From Eledone cirrhosa (lineage: Eukaryota), in the NCBI GenBank assembly GCA_964016885.1, contig OZ024743.1, positions 299,832,001 through 299,896,000 of the forward strand: DNA of 64,000 bases, written 5' to 3'. The notes under the pieces are model-generated. The model was given only the letters and a program-made list of their open reading frames with translations, had not been told where the DNA came from and did not search any database. The position numbers and the translations under genes were made by a program. Within the stretch, counting starts at the first letter, position 1; each line of letters starts with the position of its first letter. Positions 2,957 through 57,100 of this stretch are shown here, in pieces.

Positions 2957-3040
2957 ATTTTTATCCTTACGGGGTCGATAAAATAAAGTACCAGTAATGC
3001 ACTGGGTAATTGCTGGCCTTGTGCCTAAAGTAGAAACAAT
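2957..3040 (+). mobile_element. 5'-truncated SINE (octopus-type) with ~17-bp TSD
   Basis: Matches the 3' half of the SINE copies elsewhere in the window (atccttacggggtcgataaaataaagtaccag...gtagaaacaatt). It is flanked by the direct repeat attattttctattttct at ~2940 and ~3039. Confidence 0.85.
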
Positions 3041-4948
3041 TATTTTCTATTTTCTGTTTTTTCAGCTGATTTTCTTGCTTTTATATTTACAATCTGTACT
3101 GCATTGTAGCGGCTTTCACAACAAAATTAATTATAAATATATATGTATGATGTGGGTATTGTAGCTTGATAGTGGACTCATTGATCTTCTATGTCTGAAA
3201 TATATGCCTATAATGCTTAAGCTTATTTTATTGAAAAGTTCACCAGTTAATTCGTTCATAGGATATTTTTGACAATTAAATTATTTAACCTTGGATTCAA
3301 AGATCAACATATATTTATAATTAAACAGTAAGAAATGTAAATAATATAAACGAATACAACAGTTTTACCCACTCATTCTAGTATAATTAACAATGTAATC
3401 AGTGAAGCTGCAAACGTATAGCAATTACTCATTAAACTTATGAATGAGCGCTTTAATATTAGCTTGCAAATGCAGACAATTGACAACATTCTTATAGAAA
3501 ACAAAACCGAAACAATAAAATGAAAGAGAAATAGGTTGAAGCAAACGGACATGCTCCTTTTTGATATTGAGTGATTTTTAATTTATTAAGACTGATATTA
3601 TTAGCTGTTCTAACACAATAGAAACTGACCGAGAAACTTTAGTGTGCATAACTCATTCTATTCAGCTTTTAAATTTATAATTCACTACTAATTCCTAGAC
3701 GTCATCGTTGTAATATTTCATTTCATATATTTATGTATAGGTATCCTGGGGTAGGTGGAGTTGATTACTGAAAGCAAATGTGTAATGTATAATCAGCAAG
3801 TTTTGTGTTTACTTCCGATGTTAAATTATGTAAACGTAGAGATAGCAATTGGAAGTCACTTATTTTCTCAACTTCTAACCAGACACACCACTTTACACGT
3901 TCAACTTTGCCATGGCTTTCATTATTCGCTGATGTTGGTGGCTAGTGTGTCAACGCCGATTAAAGATTTAATATATCATGCACAAAAAAGAAGTTATAAT
4001 TCCAAACCTCAAAAACAAGCTAGATGAATGTCATACATCAATACGAATTCTTTATTTTAATTAAATACCTAAATGAGACCTTCGTATATGCCCCTTATCT
4101 CAAGAGTTATTAAGTTGAATCATCTTTGATCAGTCAAGCATTAGACCTCGGGGAATTTTGTATTTCTTTTTCCTATGCTTCTTTATTTCTTAAAGTTACA
4201 TCATTGATTTCTCTTGGCTATATAAAAACGTTTCTCAATCCAATAAAGAAACAATTTAAATACTTGATTTTTCGCAATCGTTTGCTCTTTAGATTTTTTA
4301 ATTTATTTTTATGAGAAAATATTTTTTATACATGTCTTTTAGTAGTTTCTTGACTGACGAATATCGAGTCACATTTGAATTTTTTTAAGTTGCTGCTGTT
4401 ATAGACTGGGTTACTGTTAGTGTTGCTGTGGAAGGTGATGTTGCTGTTATGGTTGCTGGAGAGGCTGATGTTGCTGCTGTTTTATTTCAGTTTAATTTGT
4501 TCTACTCTTTAACATACTGAAAAGTAAAAGAAAAAGATATGTTCACGTAAAAATTTACTTTGAGAATATTTTTCTCTAATTTGAATTTTGTTCTTTCTTT
4601 TATTATTGTTGTTATTGATGTGATATTTCTACTGCTGCTGTTGTTGATGATGTTGTCGTTGTTGTTGTTGTTACTGTTGCATTTTCCACAAGTTCTGCTG
4701 TGTTCTGCTTGGTTTCCTTTAAATTTCCATCACATTGTTTTGGGGTTGTTTATTTTATTTCTACAGTTTTCTCTTGTGATTGAATTGATATGACTTCTTA
4801 GTCAGGAGATAGTTCGCTACTTTGAAATACCTTTGTTGGCGTCAGTAAATAGTGTTAATTAACTACATAACAAGACGGATAAATCAATGAACTATAAAGT
4901 GTTGGAAAGAAATTCAAAGTAAAATTGAAGATGATTTATCATATATAT

Positions 4949-6052: not shown

Positions 6053-7615
6053 ATTAGAAGACAGCAACCTCTTAACCCTGATAATGTACTCCCGCTACGT
6101 TGATGATATAAACATCGTAGTAAAAACACCCCGACTAGAGAACAGTCAGGAATTAGGGACAAACACCATGGAAAGCATCCAGCAAATAGCTAACTCTATC
6201 CACCAAAGTATTAGAGTTACTATAGACTACCCAAGCAAACACCCCAACCATCGATTACCTGTACTAGACACAGAGCTCTGGTTAGATACTATCAATAACA
6301 AAAAACAGATCCTCCATTCCCATTATGCCAAACCCATGACTTCCAAATATCTGATCCACCGAAACTCAGCTGTTTCGGACCATACCAAAATCAACATACT
6401 GATTGCGGATTTGGTACGGGAAATGAGAAACGTGTCCCACATTTGCAGCCCCAAAGAACTAGAGAGACACATACAACACTTCATGCACCGTATGCAGTTC
6501 TCTGGTTACAATCAGAGAGATAAGATCAGAGTATATAGAGGAGCCAGAACCAAATGGGAAAAAATGGTAAATAATGATACAAATGGGACCTGCCCCTTGT
6601 ATAGGAGCAAATATTGGAATAGAATAGAAAGAACTATGAATGAGGTTAATAGAATATACTCATGGTATGTAGCAATAAATACCAGAGTGTAATGTTCATC
6701 GATACAACCCTTAGAGGTGAATTAACTTACAAATTTCGAAGGGCCTTAGATAAACATAAACTTAATATTAAGATAGTAGAAAGACCAGGTACCTCCATAA
6801 AAAAACACTTATTAGCAATACATACCCTTTTCAAAGACCTCCCTGTATAGATAAGACATGTATAATCTGTAAACTAAGCCCCCATATTAACTGTAAAACT
6901 AGAAATATAGTATATAGCATAAGATGTACTGAAGGACAATGTAGAGATAAGAATATAGTGTACATAGGTGAGACAGCTCGTAGTATAGGAGAAAGGATAA
7001 ATGAACACTGGCGAGAACTTCAAGATAGTAAATAATCATCTGTACTCTACCAACATGTTAAATAGAACATAAGGGTAAATTAGAGAACATAGAGATAAAA
7101 ATAGAATCTACAGACAGAAAAGACGCAATGTTTAGACAAATTACAGAGGCAATAAACATAAATGATCTCCAACCAAAATTAAATAGAAAGCATGAATGGT
7201 ACAGCAACATTCCAACTTACAATTAAGGACAAAATGAAAACACACACACACATAGAACAAACAACCAACCAGTAACATGTAAATAAACAAATAAATAAAC
7301 ACATATAAATACACACAGACACGCGGATGTCAGACATGCGCAAACTAAGCACACAACACGCACAAAAACAAGATGGCGTAGGACAGAACAAAGGAGTAGC
7401 ACAAAAACAATGAAAATAATCCCAGTCACTGAAGAGGTCACAGAATGTGTGACGAAAGAACTTTGACAATATATGAACAATCGTCTGGTTGTGGAACCAA
7501 CCAACCAACCGGAAATTTATAAATTCCTAAATTTATAAATTTAATTTATAATAAATTGAAGTGATAGCAGCTGGTGCGTGTGTTTCTTATTGGCAACATG
7601 ACCCTCCCAAAGTCT

Positions 7616-15611: not shown

Positions 15612-15945
15612 ATACGATATTAATAAAAGGAAACTATATTTATAAAACCATATTTATTTCATTATACATATTTCAGGGATACCAAATTAAATTATGGTAT
15701 GCCTTCATCAGAGAAAATACAATATATAACAGTTTTACAAATAAGCTTTGACGTACCCTATTAAAATGCAACCATAATTTAATTTGGTATCTCTGAAATA
15801 TGTATAATGAAATAAATATGGTTTTATAAATATAGTTCCCATTTATTAATATCGTATATCTACTCCAAATACTTGTCGAGTGCTTTATATCAGTTATAAA
15901 AATATTTACTTGTTGTATCCCAACAATTTTAAATAGAACTTTTGC

Positions 15946-16508: not shown

Positions 16509-17029
16509 TTTGTGTGTGGGAGTTTGTGTGTATTTTGGTGAAATTGGTGGGGCAGCAATGCGGCTGTGTATTCACCGATATCTATGTTTACGTGAGTCCA
16601 CTTGAAATTAGGGATTCGTGTGTGTGGTGTGCGAAATCTCTACACGATAAACTAGCACCGGGTCACCAAGCGTGACACACCCAACAAACCCTGCTTCCTG
16701 CTTACACCAAAACAAATATTTGAATGACCAATACGCATTTGAAACTGTACAGTGAAGGAAGTAAAAGATGACAGGATTTGAGAATATTTATCTAATGCTG
16801 AGGTTACTTGTGAAAAAGTGGATAACATTTCGGGTTACGGCCTTTTCGACGAAAGTAAAGAGTAATAGAAAGAAAGCAGAAACGCAAGAAAAAGATTTGA
16901 GTTTTATTTTTAAAACATGTTGTTTTCAAAAGGGAGATTATGTAGGGATGGAAACGTATGGAGGAAGAAATGAGGTGCGCTGTGACAGAGAGAGATGGAA
17001 AAGAGGTAAATGTGTATATGTAACCTAGG

Positions 17030-17212
17030 TGAAATGCCAGTATCGGTAGAGGGTCGGACGCTACGCTTTGACGCATAGAGTTACGGCCCTTTCCCTTCTG
17101 AGTTCAAATCCTGCCGAGGTCAACTTTGCCTTTCATCCTTACGGGGTCGATAAAATAAAGTACCAGTAATGTACTGGGTAATTGCTGGCCTTGTGCCAAA
17201 AGTAGAAACAAA
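17030..17212 (+). mobile_element. SINE (octopus-type), near full length
   Basis: Shared consensus ...cagtatcggtagagggtcggacgc...gagttcaaatcc (B-box-like)...tttcatccttacggggtcgataaaataaagtaccagtaatg...gtagaaacaa. Confidence 0.9.
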
Positions 17213-17219
17213 TATATAG

Positions 17220-17780
17220 GTATTCCCCTCCCCTTGTTTTTCATATATATTTACCTAGATTGCGATTATCTGTTTCTCTCTTTCTCTCTTACTGCTCCCC
17301 CGTTCTCTTGTTTCCCTTACCTTCTTTCGCCCCCTCTGTCAGTTACACTTTCTCTCGACTGACCTCTTCCTCGCACTTCCACTCACTCACTATCTGTTTC
17401 TCCCCTTCTCACTTCCTCCCGTTCGCTAGTAGTGAGGTTCCTTCTTTCTCACACCTCATTCACGGCGAACGGTCTGCTTCTCTGACCGCTCATGAAATTC
17501 ACCCAGCTTATGCTGAACGGATAACCATCATGTTGCTTGCTGTTTTTCCAACCTTCGGTTTGATTTTCCTTCTTGTTGTTTACTTGTCTCACTCGCTTTA
17601 CGCGTTTCACTTGTCCCAATAGCTTATTTTAGTTATTGCTCGCACCAACCTGAGGTATCTGATTTTTAATGTGATGAAATACCAATGATGGTTGGCAAAT
17701 CACTGATGAGGGACTAATTTTATAATATGTAATCCATGTGCAACCACGCAGTATTCCTCTCCCCTTGTTTTTCATATATA
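17220..17780 (+). mobile_element. Probable decayed non-autonomous PLE derivative with ~29-bp terminal direct repeat
   Basis: tattccYctccccttgtttttcatatata occurs at ~17221 and ~17753. The body is pyrimidine-rich, and CTGATGAggga at 17703 lacks a clean GAAA. Confidence 0.4.
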
Positions 17781-18217: not shown

Positions 18218-18612
18218 TGTGGATTGGCAGTATCGGTAGAGGGCCGGGCGCCATGCTTTGAAGCATAGAGTTACCTCTCTTTATGATCTGAGTTCAAATC
18301 CCGCCGAGGTTAACTTTGCCTTTCATCCTTACGGGGTCGATATAATAAAGTATCAGTAATGCACTGGGATAATTGCTGGCCTTGTGCCAAAAGTAGAAAC
18401 AATTATTATTAATATGAAAGGGCGGTGAATTGGCAGTATCGGCAGAGGGTCGGACGCCATGCTTTCTAACATAGTTACGTCCCTTTACGGTCTGAGTTTA
18501 AATCAGGTTAATTTTGCCTTTCATCATTATGGGAGTCGATAAAATAAAGTACCAGTAATGTACTGTGTAATTGTTGCCCTTGTGCCAAAAGTAGAAACAA
18601 TTATTATTATTA
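18218..18612 (+). mobile_element. Two tandem SINE copies (18218-18410, 18420-18612)
   Basis: Both match the SINE consensus and end in gtagaaacaattattatt. Confidence 0.9.
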
Positions 18613-18778
18613 TCACTGTATGTACAGATATGCAACTTAACAATATTCTGCATATCCGCAATGGACAATGCATAAAATGCTGAAACCAACCTGTATTGTA
18701 AATAAATTAATGTTTTGCTATCTCACTAAAAATAAATCTCTTCAACATTTTCTACTGAATGAATCTTTTTACTTTCTA

Positions 18779-20433: not shown

Positions 20434-20491
20434 TAATATACATACACACACACACGCACAGACATATATATATATATATATATATATAATT

Positions 20492-20786
20492 ATGTATACG
20501 TACATACATATATGTATACAGACGTACAGTAGTATGTATATATATATTCATACATGCACACAAATATATATGTACGTATGGGTTTACCGAATATTTATTA
20601 TAATGCTCGGTATATTAAATGTTCGGTAAACCCATAGGTACATATATATATTTGTGCATGTATGTATATATATATACATGCTACTGTACGTTTGTATACA
20701 TATATGTATGTACGTATACATACTTATATTTAAATAACAGCCGTACTAAGAGTGAGAAATGAAATTTCGTTTCATTTTTTCCATTT
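20492..20786. mobile_element. Family D fold-back copy
   Basis: 20492-20610 matches 50520-50640. 20616-20786 is the reverse complement of 50456-50625. Confidence 0.75.
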
Positions 20787-26523: not shown

Positions 26524-29310
<2,787 letters not shown>

Positions 29311-30024: not shown

Positions 30025-30075
<51 letters not shown>

Positions 30076-30282
30076 TATGTATACGTACATACATACATGT
30101 ATACAGACGTACAGTAGTATGTATATATATACATACATGCACACACATATATATATATATATACGTATGGATTTACCGAACATTTATTATAATGCTTGGT
30201 TTGTTTGTAAACAAACATCCTGCATTAAGCCGTACAGTGTTTATCAACCATCGTTGTCCTTTTGTTCAACATTGACGAAGGA

Positions 30283-30325
30283 ACGATGTACTAGTTTCAA
30301 GCTTATTAGCTATCATCAGCACCGT
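30283..30325 (-). ncRNA. Minimal type I hammerhead ribozyme (family D)
   Basis: acggtg-CTGATGA-tagct-aata-agctt-GAAA-ctag-TA-catcgt. It has a 6-bp stem I, an intact core and the palindromic stem III ACTAGT. It lies inside the family D copy at 30072-30372. Confidence 0.88.
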
Positions 30326-30595
30326 ATAACTTCCTGCCAGATGATTGAACGTCTGAAAGTATATACTTTCCTTATTGATATTAATAAATGGAAACTATAT
30401 TTCTAAAACCATATTTATTTTATTATATATATTTCAAGGGTACCAACATTATGGTACGATCTCAAAAGATAACATACACAATTTGTTTTATAAATGGTGA
30501 CATACCCAAGAAAACAAACTTTACCGGTTCAGCTTCAGTTCGGATACTGTCAATCCTAATAATAATAATAATAATATTAATAATAATAATAATAA

Positions 30596-41025: not shown

Positions 41026-41450
41026 GGTGGATCGGCAATATCGGTAGAGCGACGGACAACATGCTTGGCGGCATAGAGTTACAGCTCTTTACGTTCTCTG
41101 TTCAAATCCCACCGAGCATAGCTCTGCTTTTTATCCTTACAGGGTCGATAAAATAAAGTAGCAGTAAGCACTGGTGTCGATTTAATCGACTTTACCCTCC
41201 CCCAAATTGCTGGCCTTGTGCCTATATAATAAATCATTACTATTCATATATATATATAAACGTGAATTGGCCGTATCGGTAGAGGGTCGGACGCCATTAT
41301 TTGACGCATAGAGTTACGGCTCTTTCCATTCTGAGTTCAAATCCCGCCAAGGTTAACTTTGCTTTTCATCCTTACGGGGTCGATAAAATAAAGTACCAGT
41401 AATGCACTGGGTATTTGCTGGCCTTGTGCCAAAAGTAGAAACAATTATTA
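41026..41450 (+). mobile_element. Two tandem SINE copies; the first (41026-41240) is a longer subfamily with an extra gtcgatttaatcgactttaccctcccccaa segment
   Basis: Both match the consensus. The extra segment is absent from the other copies in this window. Confidence 0.85.
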
Positions 41451-42539
41451 ATATATATAAATATACATATTTTTCTTTCTATCTGTCGATTATCTATCTA
41501 TCTAACTTATCTCCCTCTCTATATTACTTTCGATGTATAAACGTATATACACAAACACATCTCTCTCTCTCTCCCTATATATATATGTATGTATGTGTGT
41601 ATGTATGCATGCATGTATGTATGTGTGCATGTATGTATGTATGAATATGTATGTGTGTATGTATGCATGTATGCATGTATGTGTGTATGTATGTATGAAT
41701 GTATGTATGTGTGAATGCATGTATGCATGTGTGTATGTATGTGTGAATGTATGTATGTATGCATGAATGTATGTATGTATATTAAGCAGCTTTTCTTTTA
41801 ATTAAGTAGTGAAGTCACGATTGTATTTTATTGTTGCTTTTTTCATCAAGTCATGTTGCTCTGTTGTAAACGACTGCTTCGATTCTGTATGGCATCTCAC
41901 TCTCGTTCCCTATTTTCTGGTATTATCAGATGAAAGCCTAGTAATGCTTCTGTCAAATACAAAATATTGAGAATTGAATCTATTCTGAAATCTTGTTATA
42001 TAAATATCTTCTACCAATTAGCAGGAAAAACCTCGGCTTTACTGAAGGCAACCGTCAATTATTGATTTGTTCTGTCAAGTGTTATAGTAAATATCAAATT
42101 ATGTCTCGATACCTCATCTCTTGTTCAGATTTAATTTCAAATGTCAATAGTTGGTTTCGGTTAAGATTCAGCAATGTTGAAGTATTTCAAATACACATGT
42201 GCGTATGGTTTATTTAGCAGCATATCGACTCAGCACTAGAATTGTTTGAAATATGGAAATGTTAAATGCGAGCATCCCAAACACACAGAATCAATGGAAT
42301 AATAGTCGATCACTACAAATAATAGTTAGGAGAATTCAGTAAGTTTCTCTTAGACACAAAAGAAAGTGAACAAAAACACTTCTGTCTAAATTTGCCCCTC
42401 ACTAAGTGTAATTTACATGTTTTTTTCAACTATTATGTGCGTTTGATACGCAATCAGATTATTTATTTTATATTATATACTCACACATTCATACATAAAC
42501 ACGCACACACACACACATACCCCCCCCCCACACACACAT

Positions 42540-48991: not shown

Positions 48992-49102
48992 CATAGTTAC
49001 GTCCCTTTACAATCTGAGTTCAAATCCCATACGGGTGTCGATGAAATAAAGTACCAGTAATGTACTGGTTAATTGCTGGCCTTGTGCCAAAAGTAGAAGC
49101 AA
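48992..49102 (+). mobile_element. Truncated SINE with 15-bp TSD attattactaataca
   Basis: SINE 3' part with an internal deletion. The direct repeat lies at ~48977 and ~49102. Confidence 0.8.
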
Positions 49103-49666
49103 TTATTACTAATACATTTGTTGATTTGTTTTTGTTTTATAAAGATCGAGCAGACTTTATGCCCCTGATCGAGCAGACTTGATGATCCAAATCAGAAACA
49201 TCACTTCACTTATCTTATAACATTTATTAAAACGCGGGTTATAATATAAGACAAATGTATTTGGTATTTCCAGCAGGTTGAACGCTAACGCGAAAGTACT
49301 GACGTTACTTCGTGCATTGGCTTTTCACTTGTTTTCGGTAACACCGTATGAAATTAGCTAGGCAAGCTAAGTTTTACAAGTAACCATGAATCTAATATAC
49401 GTTGGTGTGAATAATGAAAAGAGTTAAAAGCAGCAAAGTAATATATATCACACCAACGTTCAACGTGTTTTCATTCGAAGCGAAACATTGAAAAATAAGT
49501 ATATAAGTGTTAGAAAAAGAAAAAAAAATACTTGCTGTCCAATATGTTTATGCGTGTGTCAAAATATCTTATTAGCAAACAAACTAACCCAACTTATAGA
49601 AATACTATGCCCCAAGGAATTTCTCTCACTCTCTCTACGTATATCTGCGTCTCAAATACACGCACC

Positions 49667-49893: not shown

Positions 49894-49984
49894 GTCGCTA
49901 AATCCTGGAACGGTTTTAATGTTAGAAGTTTATAATACCAGCATATATATACCAACATTTTAAGGGAAATGGGAGGGGAGACAA

Positions 49985-50090
49985 TAATTGTTTCTACTTT
50001 AGGCACAAGGCCAGCAATTACCCAGTGCATTACTGGTACTTTATTTTATCGACCCCGTAAGGATGAAAGGCAAAGTCAACCTCGGCGGGA
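49985..50090 (-). mobile_element. 5'-truncated SINE with 18-bp TSD gggaggggagacaataat
   Basis: The direct repeat at 49971-49988 and 50087-50104 brackets a reverse SINE 3' half. Confidence 0.9.
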
Positions 50091-50397
50091 GGGGAGACAA
50101 TAATATTGTTTAGATAGATGCGTACATTTGGCGATATATATATACATATGTCAATATGAAGATACGTATATTCATATTAAAATCCTTCAGGGGCCAACTT
50201 AATGTCTCGTTACAACATCTCTTCTGACCTGTACTTCCTCGGCTTCAACACCTCTGTCATTCATCAGATTCTATACATCGTCATCAAAAATACATAGGTT
50301 ACTTTCCACAACCACACATATATACACAACAATTCTACCTGCGGGATCCAGTTGCACAGGACTACTCTCCATTACCTATATATATATATATATATAA

Positions 50398-50453
<56 letters not shown>

Positions 50454-50457
<4 letters not shown>

Positions 50458-51076
50458 GGAAAAAATGAAACGATATTTCATTTCCCACTCTTAGTACGGC
50501 TGTTACTTAAATATATGTATGTACACGTACATACATATATGTATACCGACGTACAGTAGTATGTATATATATATATACATACATGCACACATATATATAT
50601 GCACGTATGGATTCACCGAACATTTATTATAATGCTCGGTGTGTTCGTAAACAAACATCCCGTATTAAGCCGTAGTGTCTAGCAACCGCCGTTGCTCGTT
50701 TGTTCAACACTGACAAAGGAACGCTGTACTAGTTTCAAGCTTGTTAGCTATCGTCAGCAACGTATACCTTCCTGCCAGATTGTTGAACGTATATACTTAC
50801 CTTATGCATATTAACGGCTGAGTAGCCCAATATGCATATCGAGTGGGTTAATCGGCCGGGTGCACCGAAAACGATAAACGGAAAAAATGAAACGATATTT
50901 CATTTCCCACTATTAGTACGGCTGTTACTTAAATATAAGTATGTACACGTACATACATATATGTATACCGACGTACAGTAGTATGTATATATATATATAC
51001 ATACATGCACACATATATATATGCACGTATGGATTCACTGAACATTTATTATAATGCTCGGTGTGTTTGTAAACAA
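50454..51076 (-). mobile_element. Family D HHR-bearing non-coding element, ~1.5 tandem units of 422 bp (retrozyme/pLTR-like)
   Basis: aaacggaaaaaatgaaacgatatttc starts at 50454 and again at 50876. The ~200-bp terminal direct repeat is almost identical. There is (TA)n on both sides and an intact HHR inside. Confidence 0.85.
50721..50763 (-). ncRNA. Minimal type I hammerhead ribozyme (family D)
   Basis: acgttg-CTGACGA-tagct-aaca-agctt-GAAA-ctag-TA-cagcgt. Confidence 0.9.
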
Positions 51077-51100
51077 ATATATATATATAAATGTATATAT

Positions 51101-51264
<164 letters not shown>

Positions 51265-51298
51265 GTTTTTATATATATATATATATATATATATAAAT

Positions 51299-51336
<38 letters not shown>

Positions 51337-51342
<6 letters not shown>

Positions 51343-51583
51343 TTTATAAGAACCGTAGAGCAAATATTTATTAAAATAACAGATTAGAGTTTAAGCAAAG
51401 AATCGCTGCTTTCACCCTTAACGGGATCTTCTGAAGATCCCGTTAAGGGTGAAAGCAGCGATTCTTTGCTTAAAATTTAATCTGTTATTTTAATAAATAT
51501 TTGCTCTACGGTTCTTATATATCTGATATATATTTATCCTTATCGAGCCCTCTTTGGATTTTAGTCTTCAAATTTATTATTAT

Positions 51584-54183: not shown

Positions 54184-57100
54184 TGCTTTCTTTATTAACC
54201 ACAAGGGTTTACACAAAGTTGACATTAAGGACAGTACAGGACAATACAGGACAAAACAGGCCGGTACAAAAAGGCATTTCTGCGTGTAAAAAAACAAAAA
54301 ACAGAGGATGTAATAATAGAACAATGAAAAAATTCCCCAATAGGGGGTGACTTCCGAGGGCCATCGTGGAGAAAGCCCATTAAAAAGCCACAGTGACCCT
54401 GACCACCAGGGCAAGTGCCCTCTCCCAGTTTTCCACCTTTAATTTGCAGACACATACTCAGATTATCGGGCCATTCTTGCCTCTCTCACCCATCTTTCAA
54501 CAAAATGCTGGGAAGAGAGTACACACCTTTCTACCCTGATTTTCCTTTTCAAATGAAATTTGAAAAGGTTAATCAATGCATCACCGAAGAGGTAAGTGCT
54601 CGACTACAACCCTTTCAAACGTGTCCACCATACTATCTTTTTCGCCATGGCCACCAGACAGATAAAAGCCACCTGCCCTTCCCGGCTAAAGGAAGAGGGC
54701 GGGGCAAACCTCACGATGGACTCAGCTGATAGCTGGATCCGTCCTACACGCGACAGCAGGTATTTGACATAAACCCACAAGTCAGCAATGCTCGGACACT
54801 GGACGAGTGCTTGCAGGACAGTTTCGACGCCCTGCGCCCATCTCGCACATGCCCGGCTGACGGCACCTCCATGCCTGTAAAGTTTATCCCGAACTGGCAA
54901 AGCACCCCGGTAGCACTGCCAGGCCAGGGATTTCTGGAAGTTGTCCAGAGGCCCCGGCGCGAAAGTTCTTCCGAAGAGATTGGCTAGTTGATTTTCGTCG
55001 ACGCCTAGAGTTTCCCCAAGTACATCATCGCTCTTCCCCTCCACTAATCCTCTATAGAACGCCAAGGTGGAGTTTCCACCGATCACTTTGCCCGATTAGT
55101 CGAGGGCTATCAGCGCCTGAAGTCATTCCAGTCTCCAAGCGCTCCCTCTCGGTCTTCGCTTGACCCAGGACTGCAGCTCCGTCAAGGAGACGAGCTGGGG
55201 AAAAACGCGTCTAGCAAACGGCGACCATACCTGAGCACCGTCGAGGAAGAGTAGTAGATGACGGTAGCAGGCGGTAGTAGATGACGGACGCGATGTATGC
55301 GTTAGCCACCTCTGCTCGACCTTTCAGGGATAGCTTCCTCTCTGCCCATTTCTGGGTGAGAGAAGCCATCCTGCTCGTCACCTCTCCCAGGTTTTGTTCG
55401 TCTGGAGGTCCGGACCGAACCAGACCCCTAGCAATTTAACCGGTCCGTCCGTCCAGCGCCCGACGACGCTGTTGGACGGCATGGACTTGCCTCTCCAGGT
55501 GCCGAGCTGCAGGTCCACTGACTTTTACTGGTTGATCATTGCTCCTGTGACCGCTTCGTATTCTCTTAGTGTAGTGCAGATCGCCTCGATGTGTTTGGGG
55601 TTCGACATCACTACGGTGACATCGTCCGCATATGCTGACACAGATCTTCCGCATCCTAGTTCGCGCGGGATCCCCTTCAACGTCTCCAGTTTGTGCAGTA
55701 ATGGCTCGAGAGTCAATACGTACAAGAGGGACGAGAGGGGACATCCTTGGTGGACCGAGCGCATGAAGTTGAACAGTTCCGAAAGGTGACCGTTCACTCT
55801 CACCACAGAGTAGATGTCGCTGTGCATTGCAGCGATCCAGGCTCTGAAGACGGGCCCAAAAGCAGCCGCCCTCAGGACTGCCGCCAGATAACGATGGTCG
55901 ACCCTATCGAAAGCTTTCGACTAATCTAAATTGATCAAGGCCCCACTCGTGCCAGGTTCCCTAGCTACCCTCTCCACGATGTATCGCAAGAGGTGGAGTT
56001 GTTGTGGATGGATCTGTCGGGAATGGCGCATATCTGCGCATCTCCCACCAGACCACCAACGACAAGTGCCAACCTCTGTGCTAGCACCTTGGCCAAGATC
56101 TTGAACTCTGTGTTTACCAGAGTTCTGGGCCTGAAATTATCTCTGTTATCCCCCTTGTTCGGATCCTTTCTCAGCTGTACCACTCCTCGGCTCACATAAC
56201 TGGGAATTCTCCCGTTCTGTTCGCAGTTGCAGTAGATGTCCGCCAAGAGGCATCTGAACAAGTCTGGCATCTGTACGTAAAGTTCATAGGGCAGACCATC
56301 CAAACCAGGCGATTTACCCCCTGTGCAGCCAGTCATTGCCTCCGGTACTTCAGCGGCTGTTATCGGCTTTTCGCAACACTCCGGTTCGGTGGCCGAGAGC
56401 CGCGGCAGTCCGTCGAGGTAGACACTAAAGTCCATCCCTCGACCCGGCCGCCGCTGCCCCCGAACAGCTGAGCGAAGTATCGCTGAAATGCTTCACAGAT
56501 TTTCCCGGGTTCGAGTAGCAGGCGCCCGTCGTGGTCCACCAAAGACCGGATCGTGGCTTTGTTGCCACGTCGCGTCTCCGCCACTCGATCCCATTGAACA
56601 GCGTTTTCGTCCCCTCGTGTCTGAGAGCACGCACCCTAATTCTGAAAACGCAGCCTTCGTGCAAGTACGTCGGTCTCGATGCCTTTACTAAGATCCTCTT
56701 CTTATTTTCTAACTAGTCCTCCCTCTGCTCTATTTTTCTCTATTGCTAAAGCCTTTCTAAACCTAATGGACTCTATTCTAATCGCTGTTTTCAGAGCAAA
56801 CCACCATTTGTTGTTGACGATGGGCCTCTGTCAACGCCCGCTTAACTAATTCACTAATCCTGTTTCTGTAGGCCTTGCGCCCTATTAATGACGCGTTTAG
56901 GTTCCAGTAGCTAAGTCCCTATCTATGAAGCCTATCTAAGTCAACCTCACAGATCACGAAATTGAGGTCAGTGTAGTCGACTATTTTGAAATGTGAACAG
57001 CCTATTCTGGACCTATCTTTTTCCCTACAAAATACCCTATCAATATATGATTTGGATCACCCGATGCAGTTTGTCCATGTCCACTTTGTCACATTCGGGA

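Follow-up and report, generated by a model that had tools for sequence, protein, structure and literature searches.

The window analysed here, a 64,000-nt stretch of Eledone cirrhosa DNA, carries a repeat insertion at 50452..51076 on the (-) strand. It consists of one arm of the type that we term 'long', covers 1.48 turns of a 422-nt unit and is 5'-truncated at about unit position 72, with unit positions counted from the ribozyme cut site along the hammerhead strand. The initial annotation had described a 422-bp period and a terminal direct repeat of about 200 bp, and both were recovered: 422 is the sole period in the range 400-439 with more than 200 matches in 300, and 50452-50654 and 50874-51076 are 98.0% identical over 203 nt, with 4 mismatches at 50490, 50516, 50617 and 50646. 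The segment 50874..51076 ((-) strand) is the part of the unit that was copied twice, a second 50452-50654; the reading of this 203-bp repeat as an LTR was rejected because the length of the overlap varies from locus to locus and here corresponds to 1.48 turns of the unit. As had also been reported, (TA)n lies on both sides, at 50377..50454 (left half of the target) and 51077..51338 (right half), and since the ATAAATG interruption is present in both flanks, one microsatellite appears to have been split by the insertion. The only reading frames of at least 60 aa to reach the element arise from TA repeats at its right end, in line with the earlier view that it holds no meaningful ORF. Copies of the family have two kinds of 3' end, a short end (unit 216) and a long end (unit 275), which correspond to window positions 50511 and 50452. 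The 59-nt 'tail' between them (50452..50510, (-) strand), bounded by two putative start sites of reverse transcriptase (RT), includes a hairpin conserved in a sister family, and a long AT-rich hairpin at unit about 119-204 (50523..50608, (-) strand) is where several of the A>G sites shared in other loci map.

A type I hammerhead motif lies at 50721..50763 on the (-) strand. Stem I (6 bp) pairs 50763-50758 with 50726-50721, the core consists of CUGACGA (50757-50751) and GAAA (50736-50733), and stem II (AGCU/AGCU, 4 bp) pairs 50749-50746 with 50741-50738 and has a U-U at its base instead of G-C, while helix III comprises 1 bp with a palindromic CUAG loop. The predicted cut follows GUA, between 50727 and 50726. 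The motif and its position agree with the 'clean minimal HHR' called earlier, but the 'min-HHR' label does not hold, since under the definitions given in PMC4209133 this is a type I hammerhead of the canonical type. The hammerhead descriptor matched 0 of 5,000 dinucleotide shuffles of the 623 nt. Rfam gave 0 hits on the window at the gathering threshold, and at E<=10 it gave 71 hits on 50400-51150 with no hammerhead among them, the top ones being microRNA models on the AT-rich hairpin, far below their cut-offs; the 56-nt motif alone folds no better than shuffles (z -0.78). Because Rfam returned no hammerhead, the ribozyme call rests on the core sequence, the helices and covariation: the core is intact in 348 of 402 motif matches (fetched loci plus the window), and a stem I U-G pair is changed to G-U in the sister family and in older copies. 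The predicted fold of the circular monomer reaches -141.9 kcal/mol (z -8.0 against 40 shuffles), a score that derives partly from AT-rich palindromes, the antisense strand also giving z -4.4. Stem I and a 26-nt extension close the junction in this fold; the predicted extension, in which unit 1-26 pairs with 354-391 (50701..50795, (-) strand; circular fold only), would keep the two ends of the monomer in contact after cleavage, and a similar rod is predicted in the sister family. The hammerhead of this family (family D) lacks the G10.1-C11.1 pair, and motifs without that pair and with a 1-bp helix III are described as cleaving poorly as monomers (PMC7229834), while a weak palindromic helix III is expected to act as a dimer (PMC4209133); 8 of 9 frog retrozyme dimers stayed uncleaved in vitro (10.64898/2026.07.22.740005). 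The geometry of the motif predicts weak activity as a monomer and better activity as a dimer. With only one hammerhead, the window copy cannot itself release a monomer.

Two further copies noticed in the window were found to be real. The copy near 30072-30372 spans 30066..30384 ((-) strand) and is an older relative with 85% identity, its short end at the left, its hammerhead core at 30319 and the G-U for U-G variant in stem I. The fold-back copy near 20492-20786 spans 20481..20786, is about 90% identical and has two opposite arms, with the short end at the left, the long end at the right, an inversion near 20611 and no hammerhead. Across the genome, a search with the unit gave 1,063 candidates, and the 40 scored were 99% identical, mostly in arrays at 422-424 bp spacing. 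Exact junction motifs between (TA)n and the unit numbered 420 for the long end (unit 275) and 1,355 for the short end (unit 216), two counts that are not comparable because the long-end motif spans a subfamily site; reversed-pattern controls gave 0. For structural analysis, we sampled 90 of the first 100 listed long-end places, 40 stretches from the top of the short-end list and, in addition, 12 regions of top hits, nearly all on contig C1, a sample that favours young copies because it was anchored on exact motifs. The units of the 92 young loci diverge by 0.51% from the commonest allele, and arrays range from 1 to more than 10 units of 422 bp. A divergent relative, followed as a lead to a coding parent, was rejected as such and proved to be a second young retrozyme family. 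This sister family (L224-L303, e.g. G000:C4:212605553-212608433) has a unit of 496 nt, a period of 492-504 bp and 72% identity to the unit (357 of 498 columns), with 389 exact long-end motifs; its ends at 340 and about 280 are homologous to those of the unit, and its hammerhead is the same apart from the stem I change given above. Two unusual arrays were also observed. Loci L213-L217 (G000:C1 about 96.98-97.05 Mb) form a satellite-like array whose units are about 7% diverged; it is organised as a dimeric higher-order repeat of 839 bp, and one of the two hammerhead motifs in each dimer is altered. Loci L031 and L183 (G000:C1:253171797-253186900) form a very long young array, interrupted by a 4-kb gap, whose units number more than 25 and lie in both orientations; 11 of the first 12 are identical and have a 2-nt insertion in common.

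Analysis of the parsed loci revealed that the joint from unit end to unit start is seamless in about 140 of them, up to at least 10 times, and that no arm runs into coding sequence, which bears out the retrozyme reading first given. The copies are not permutation-free, fixed-end 3' fragments of a coding Penelope-like element (PLE), the finding that the initial annotation had named as fatal to its reading. Circular permutation, which it had raised, applies to the 5' (inner) ends but not to the 3' ends, which are fixed at two sites 59 nt apart; likewise, its partial-tandem insertion describes the window copy, but the typical insertion has two divergent arms, of which the window copy has kept one. 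Among 90 long-anchored loci, 39 were long+short, 5 other and 46 single; 41 short-anchored loci gave 16 short+long, 7 other and 18 single, and the top-hit loci 7 long+short and 2 single. When the bounds were widened slightly and five loci of compound or satellite type were left out, long+short accounted for 63 of the 73 loci with two arms. The arms always point apart, with ends at unit 275 on one and at 216 on the other in these 63. Three of the ten remaining loci run off the parsed stretch, L094 may be long+long (275/280) and L208 is near short+short (216/226), with 0 strictly short+short loci among the 73. By eye, a 10-15-nt piece of the short end can be seen after many of the long arms scored as 'single'. 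The inner breakpoints are variable and are mostly joined with -3 to +4 nt of overlap or by patches templated from the unit. As anchors had been chosen with (TA)n, we scored the unanchored outer ends, which adjoin (TA)n in 64 of 67. The 50 loci of the sister family comprised 20 long+short, 0 long+long, 4 other and 17 single, with 9 cut off. Five contigs (X3, X4, X6, X7 and X8) hold the unit and the head-to-tail joint, and X6 and X4 each contain one opposite-strand joint, that of X6 with the same polarity; since independent contigs show both kinds of joint, the structure is unlikely to be an assembly artefact. Two others, X1 and X2 (guessed to be RNA), match only the TA-rich stretch, and none of these seven bears on expression. 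We consider it quite likely that both arms derive from double priming of one RNA molecule. Within this family, the window copy is a daughter with one arm and one hammerhead.

To characterise the template, we dropped 11 compound or satellite entries, leaving 129 loci and 427 units, and masked TA-run positions 125-169 and indel edges in the variant calls. The ribozyme cut site is crossed by 137 of 185 arms, and twice or more by 53 of 185, so a cleaved linear monomer was rejected as template. Arm stops are not enriched at the cut site itself (3 in 5,609 sites) and are 2.2-fold enriched in the hammerhead at unit 386-411 (23/6,370 vs 137/84,962, p=9e-4). A doubly primed linear multimer should leave variants mirrored by rank, and a circle should leave variants in every unit. 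Rare variants present in all units of both arms, across ranks, were found in 14 cases at 9 loci, and rank-mirrored variants numbered 0 among 17,562 informative unit-sites, at which 93 one-arm singletons occurred. Another 13 variants are present in only some units of a locus, mostly in neighbours within one arm, and the sister set includes one mirror-like variant (L285). In genome-wide searches, the four-change haplotype of L117 occurs exactly 3 times, always in L117 and in both arms, at a locus without singletons, and the three-A>G stretch of L115 occurs exactly twice, once per arm of L115. The L198 haplotype (8 in the locus and 6 elsewhere) and the L120 haplotype (6 and 63) are not private, so that 2 of 4 tested haplotypes are. 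Arms of at least 10 seamless turns and locus-wide variants in 9 loci agree with the idea, voiced in the initial annotation, of rolling past the start of a circle; circle-templated, PLE-driven insertion has been proposed for retrozymes (PMC7229834, 10.64898/2026.07.22.740005). A circular monomer is the likely template.

Comparison of shared and singleton variants revealed an excess of A>G changes in the former. In the 92 young loci, A>G accounts for 18 of 37 shared variants and 14 of 156 singletons (Fisher 1.8e-7), with A>G:T>C ratios of 18:3 and 14:20, respectively; in the sister family, the fractions are 9 of 16 and 14 of 141 (4e-5). When distinct sites of both families are counted, 19 of 41 are A>G, with A>G:T>C at 19:4 (p=0.003), C>T at 5 and G>A at 3. 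A 5' U is found at 15 of the 19 A>G sites against a background of 35% (p=1e-4), and no site has a 5' G. At least two A>G changes are present in 5 of 17 loci, an outcome seen in 0 of 200,000 simulations: all five shared changes of L115 are A>G, and three of the four in L117 are A>G within 19 nt. A DNA-strand bias would cancel because the arms are inverted, and singletons show no bias. The 5'-U context is the neighbour preference of ADAR, and ADAR editing is prominent in some invertebrates. The sense-strand excess, the clustering and the 5'-U context expected of an edited template are all present, and we lean, with some reserve, towards ADAR (A-to-I) editing of the template RNA as the putative source of the excess. 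Two-arm loci would give long perfect double-stranded precursors, an alternative editing substrate.

The circle may be right as template and the A>G excess may nonetheless reflect selection for pair-preserving changes, or an error bias of the polymerase or RT, which we regard as unlikely though worth weighing. A change from A-U to G-U preserves pairing, but the equally pair-preserving C>U shows no comparable excess in the counts above, and selection acts as a filter that cannot cluster five A>G changes alone on one young template (L115). Such an origin would suit the A>G sites 47, 97, 102 and 326, which are unpaired in the predicted circle, and the lack of a 3'-G preference; the 5'-U enrichment and the absence of 5'-G sites speak for ADAR. 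The evidence comes from few independent loci (9 in family D), and some A>G alleles recur in several loci, including the sister alleles 264/268, and may be inherited. With old loci included and variants allowed in up to 2 or 3 loci, A>G:T>C falls to 9:5 and 11:5, which is not significant.

The same PLE two-site priming could also have acted on an uncleaved linear multimeric transcript of a homogeneous donor array, with a weak or dispensable hammerhead and without the need for a circle. The weak hammerhead geometry accords with this, and the one PLE tested in vitro used mainly uncleaved RNA as template and did not need cleavage (PMC11167929). Units of the youngest arrays hardly vary, so that these arrays would also yield few mirrored variants, and the one mirror-like case in the sister family is of the expected kind, but the locus-wide multi-rank variants described above were accompanied by no mirrored one. 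The four changes of L117 extend across ranks and both arms with no donor elsewhere in the assembly, and editing of a linear multimer would vary from unit to unit. Arrays copied from linear RNA would, moreover, shorten in each generation, yet arms reach at least 10 units. We judge a linear multimer to be rather improbable, and the circular monomer remains the preferred template.

Still less probable is that monomeric or 1.5-mer insertions were expanded later in DNA by slippage, unequal crossing-over or gene conversion, with the second arm formed by fold-back. Models of this type have been put forward for retrozyme arrays and PLE palindromes (10.64898/2026.07.22.740005, PMC3846280), the former study (Li, Clavereau and Pollet 2026) leaning to local DNA expansion. 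The short arm extends further 5' than the long arm in 34 of the 63 long+short loci and lacks any tail sequence in 13, so that fold-back copying of one arm from the other cannot be the general rule, and we rejected it as the general origin of the second arm. Symmetric inner junctions occur at 7 of 63 loci (1.3 expected), indicating that fold-back synthesis contributes, but at 56 of 63 the two inner breakpoints bear no relation to each other. Variants limited to some adjacent units and the satellite-like array on C1 near 97.0 Mb fit expansion in DNA, and the large satellite-like arrays with the dimeric 839-bp repeat indicate that DNA-level expansion also occurs; the dispersed multimers, however, are young (0.5% divergence), and a process in DNA gives no sense-strand A>G bias common to inverted arms, of which the singletons show no sign.

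At the sequence level, the element shows every feature by which non-LTR retrozymes are recognised (PMC7229834, 10.64898/2026.07.22.740005). Its unit of 422 bp (496 bp in the sister family) lies within their size range (about 150-450 bp, up to about 970, low GC), and each unit has a type I hammerhead, mostly with an intact core. Two or more consecutive hammerheads are found in 53 of 185 arms (one in the window copy), and neither coding capacity nor LTR organisation is present, the repeat length varying by locus. As in the metazoan non-LTR retrozymes of these sources, the non-coding, low-GC tandem unit of a few hundred bp occurs from dimers to large multimers, has a self-paired predicted circle and co-occurs with PLEs; the weak helix III with a palindromic tetraloop resembles axolotl HHR_Amex1, and the U-U base of helix II resembles HHR_Amex2. 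The metazoan elements are described as head-to-tail arrays only ('inverted' occurs 0 times in the available text of PMC7229834), whereas the unit here forms divergent two-arm insertions in which long and short ends are obligate, variants extend through whole loci and an A>G signature is present. Expression and cleavage have been shown for the metazoan elements of these sources. Plant LTR retrozymes (PMC4918200) are likewise non-autonomous hammerhead retroelements that move via circular RNA, but they have a type III hammerhead, true LTRs, PBS/PPT and Gypsy machinery, and an LTR retrozyme identity was rejected given the type I motif and the rolling overlap of variable length. A literature search made mostly outside subscription papers found no report of two-armed retrozyme insertions or of genome-fixed edited retrozyme copies.

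The ends of the insertions point to PLE machinery. PLE hallmarks include an inverted truncated partner, a tail at one end and microsatellite targets (PMC8557442, PMC3846280), and in vitro a PLE protein cuts and extends both target strands, prefers AT-rich DNA and begins synthesis at two sites within the RNA, which delimit the genomic tail (PMC11167929). The 59 nt of the unit (216-275) fit the definition of a Penelope tail as the stretch between two internal RT start sites. A one-end tail with an inverted 5'-truncated partner is present in the 63 loci and in 20 of the sister family, and the outer flanks are the AT-rich microsatellite (TA)n. It is highly probable that the retrozyme is moved by PLE machinery. 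L1 twin priming likewise uses two primers from the target strands on a single RNA, and its arms diverge and meet at microhomology. The second site in L1 has no constant position and sets the limit of the first arm; in the present family neither site varies, and both arms can grow to many times the length of the unit. With EN+ PLEs (Neptune/Nematis-type, Poseidon, Naiad; PMC8557442, PMC3846280, PMC11167929), the unit shares the inverted 5'-truncated copy, one-end tail, microhomology junctions, microsatellite targets, two RT start sites and a hammerhead upstream of the 3' end. It differs from them in having no ORF, a tail of 59 nt instead of 30-40, a repeat that makes up the whole element, so that both arms are multimers, and a near-obligate pairing of long and short ends that can be counted over dozens of young loci. 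The identity of an autonomous PLE was rejected, as neither the unit nor its arms contain an ORF. Chlamys elements such as MRC1 (PMC8557442) are similarly non-autonomous PLE passengers with multicopy head-to-tail insertions, but that clade is reported to have no canonical hammerheads and a similarity to the 3' end of an autonomous element, which was not found for the unit.

The genome contains coding RT+GIY-YIG elements with a CX4CxxC linker, their own 40-63-nt two-end tails and (TA)n targets; the linker criterion of PMC8557442 classes them as Neptune/Nematis-type. In the GIY-YIG family search, 150 of 10,596 candidates were scored, and none of the 50 loci examined held an autonomous element that shares the tail or hammerhead of the unit. 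Copies of the unit are present at three of these loci (L067, L143 and L144). The L144 copy, 1.2 kb behind a PLE ORF, was rejected as PLE-linked because (TA)n separates it from the PLE 3' UTR and other members of that family end without a copy; L067 and L143 showed no shared 3' UTR linking the unit copies to their ORFs. That the copies are merely the 3' ends (pLTRs) of a long coding PLE is hardly credible, despite their PLE-type ends and hammerhead and the position of the L144 copy, which (TA)n sets apart, since no parsed arm continues into coding sequence. The unit likely originated from a PLE pLTR, though its present copies are self-contained. A junction screen of 82 one-armed loci against the PLE loci yielded two chimeras. 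In L205 (G000:C1:72919703-72925703), a retrozyme short arm meets, at a GAAAAAA microhomology, a divergent arm of 290 nt that comes from the 3' UTR of a coding PLE family, with (TA)n on both sides, and in L281 (G000:C1:212581683-212584717), 70 nt (98.6%) of the 3' UTR of another PLE family lie 5' of a sister-family arm in the same sense, a possible template switch. The chimeras point to two different PLE families and hint at shared machinery. Another coding RT+GIY-YIG family (L136, L137, L140, L148 and L072) has its own type I hammerhead about 385 nt past the stop codon, with a palindromic AGUACU helix III and a tail of roughly 50 nt. Loci L133-L135 contain open RT+GIY-YIG frames of 938, 844 and 1,096 codons from stop to stop and are candidates for recently active PLEs.

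We assign a probability of about 0.7 to the reading that the element is a non-LTR retrozyme inserted in trans by a PLE-like RT-endonuclease, through two-site priming on one likely circular, often likely edited RNA. In the proposed sequence of events, multimeric loci would be transcribed and their hammerheads, probably acting as dimers via the palindromic CUAG loop, would release 422-nt monomers that a host ligase would close. ADAR, to judge from the variant spectrum, may then deaminate adenosines in the structured monomer or in a fold-back precursor. A PLE protein would nick both strands of a (TA)n site, and one 3' end would prime at unit 216 and the other at 275, the two ends seen at the loci, on a few bases of TA microhomology. 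Each cDNA would roll past the ribozyme junction, the observed lengths corresponding to 0.1 to more than 10 turns, and would stop at a variable place, more often inside the hammerhead. Joining of the cDNA ends by the 0-4 nt of microhomology or short templated patches seen at the junctions would give back-to-back arms, and a one-armed copy such as that in the window would result if one cDNA were lost or tiny. At slightly below even odds, we put the bolder view that each insertion is the DNA fossil of one circular ribozyme RNA on which two RTs rolled from two fixed sites, that ADAR edits are thereby inherited through the germline and editing is a main source of heritable change, and that obligate two-site priming explains the inverted-plus-tail structure of Penelope elements.

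Two open questions are touched by these loci: how animal retrozyme circles re-enter the genome, a route proposed since 2020 with support from co-occurrence and pLTR phylogeny, and how Penelope elements make inverted, one-tailed insertions, for which in vitro work in 2024 demonstrated two start sites. With hundreds of young loci that are almost identical, the family offers genomic read-outs for both, the pairing of ends arguing for two-site priming on one molecule and the locus-wide variants for a circular template. The 59-nt tail hairpin and the predicted 422-nt circle would make a compact substrate on which PLE reverse transcriptases could be tested. Should the A>G excess reflect editing, the loci offer a countable route from A-to-I editing to heritable DNA change.

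Several other repeats were observed in the window. Hammerhead-like cores at 7429, 11557 and 61338 (+) and at 15711, 18922 and 43875 (-) belong to at least three other repeat families, which are also seen in PLE-containing loci. An abundant, dispersed SINE-like repeat, about 190 bp long and in many cases with short AT repeats at its end, is present at 2959-3052, 17029-17224, 18219-18613, 28307-28502, 41027-41457, 49022-49115 and 49962-50124. Near-perfect long inverted repeats lie at 26639-27472 and 27591-29273 (377-nt and 222-nt arms), with a shorter one at 51345-51530 just right of the element, and may represent further two-armed insertions of PLE type or else fold-back elements. On the (-) strand, 54604-56492 contains decayed fragments of LINE-type reverse transcriptase, which are spread over several frames and have no relation to the unit.
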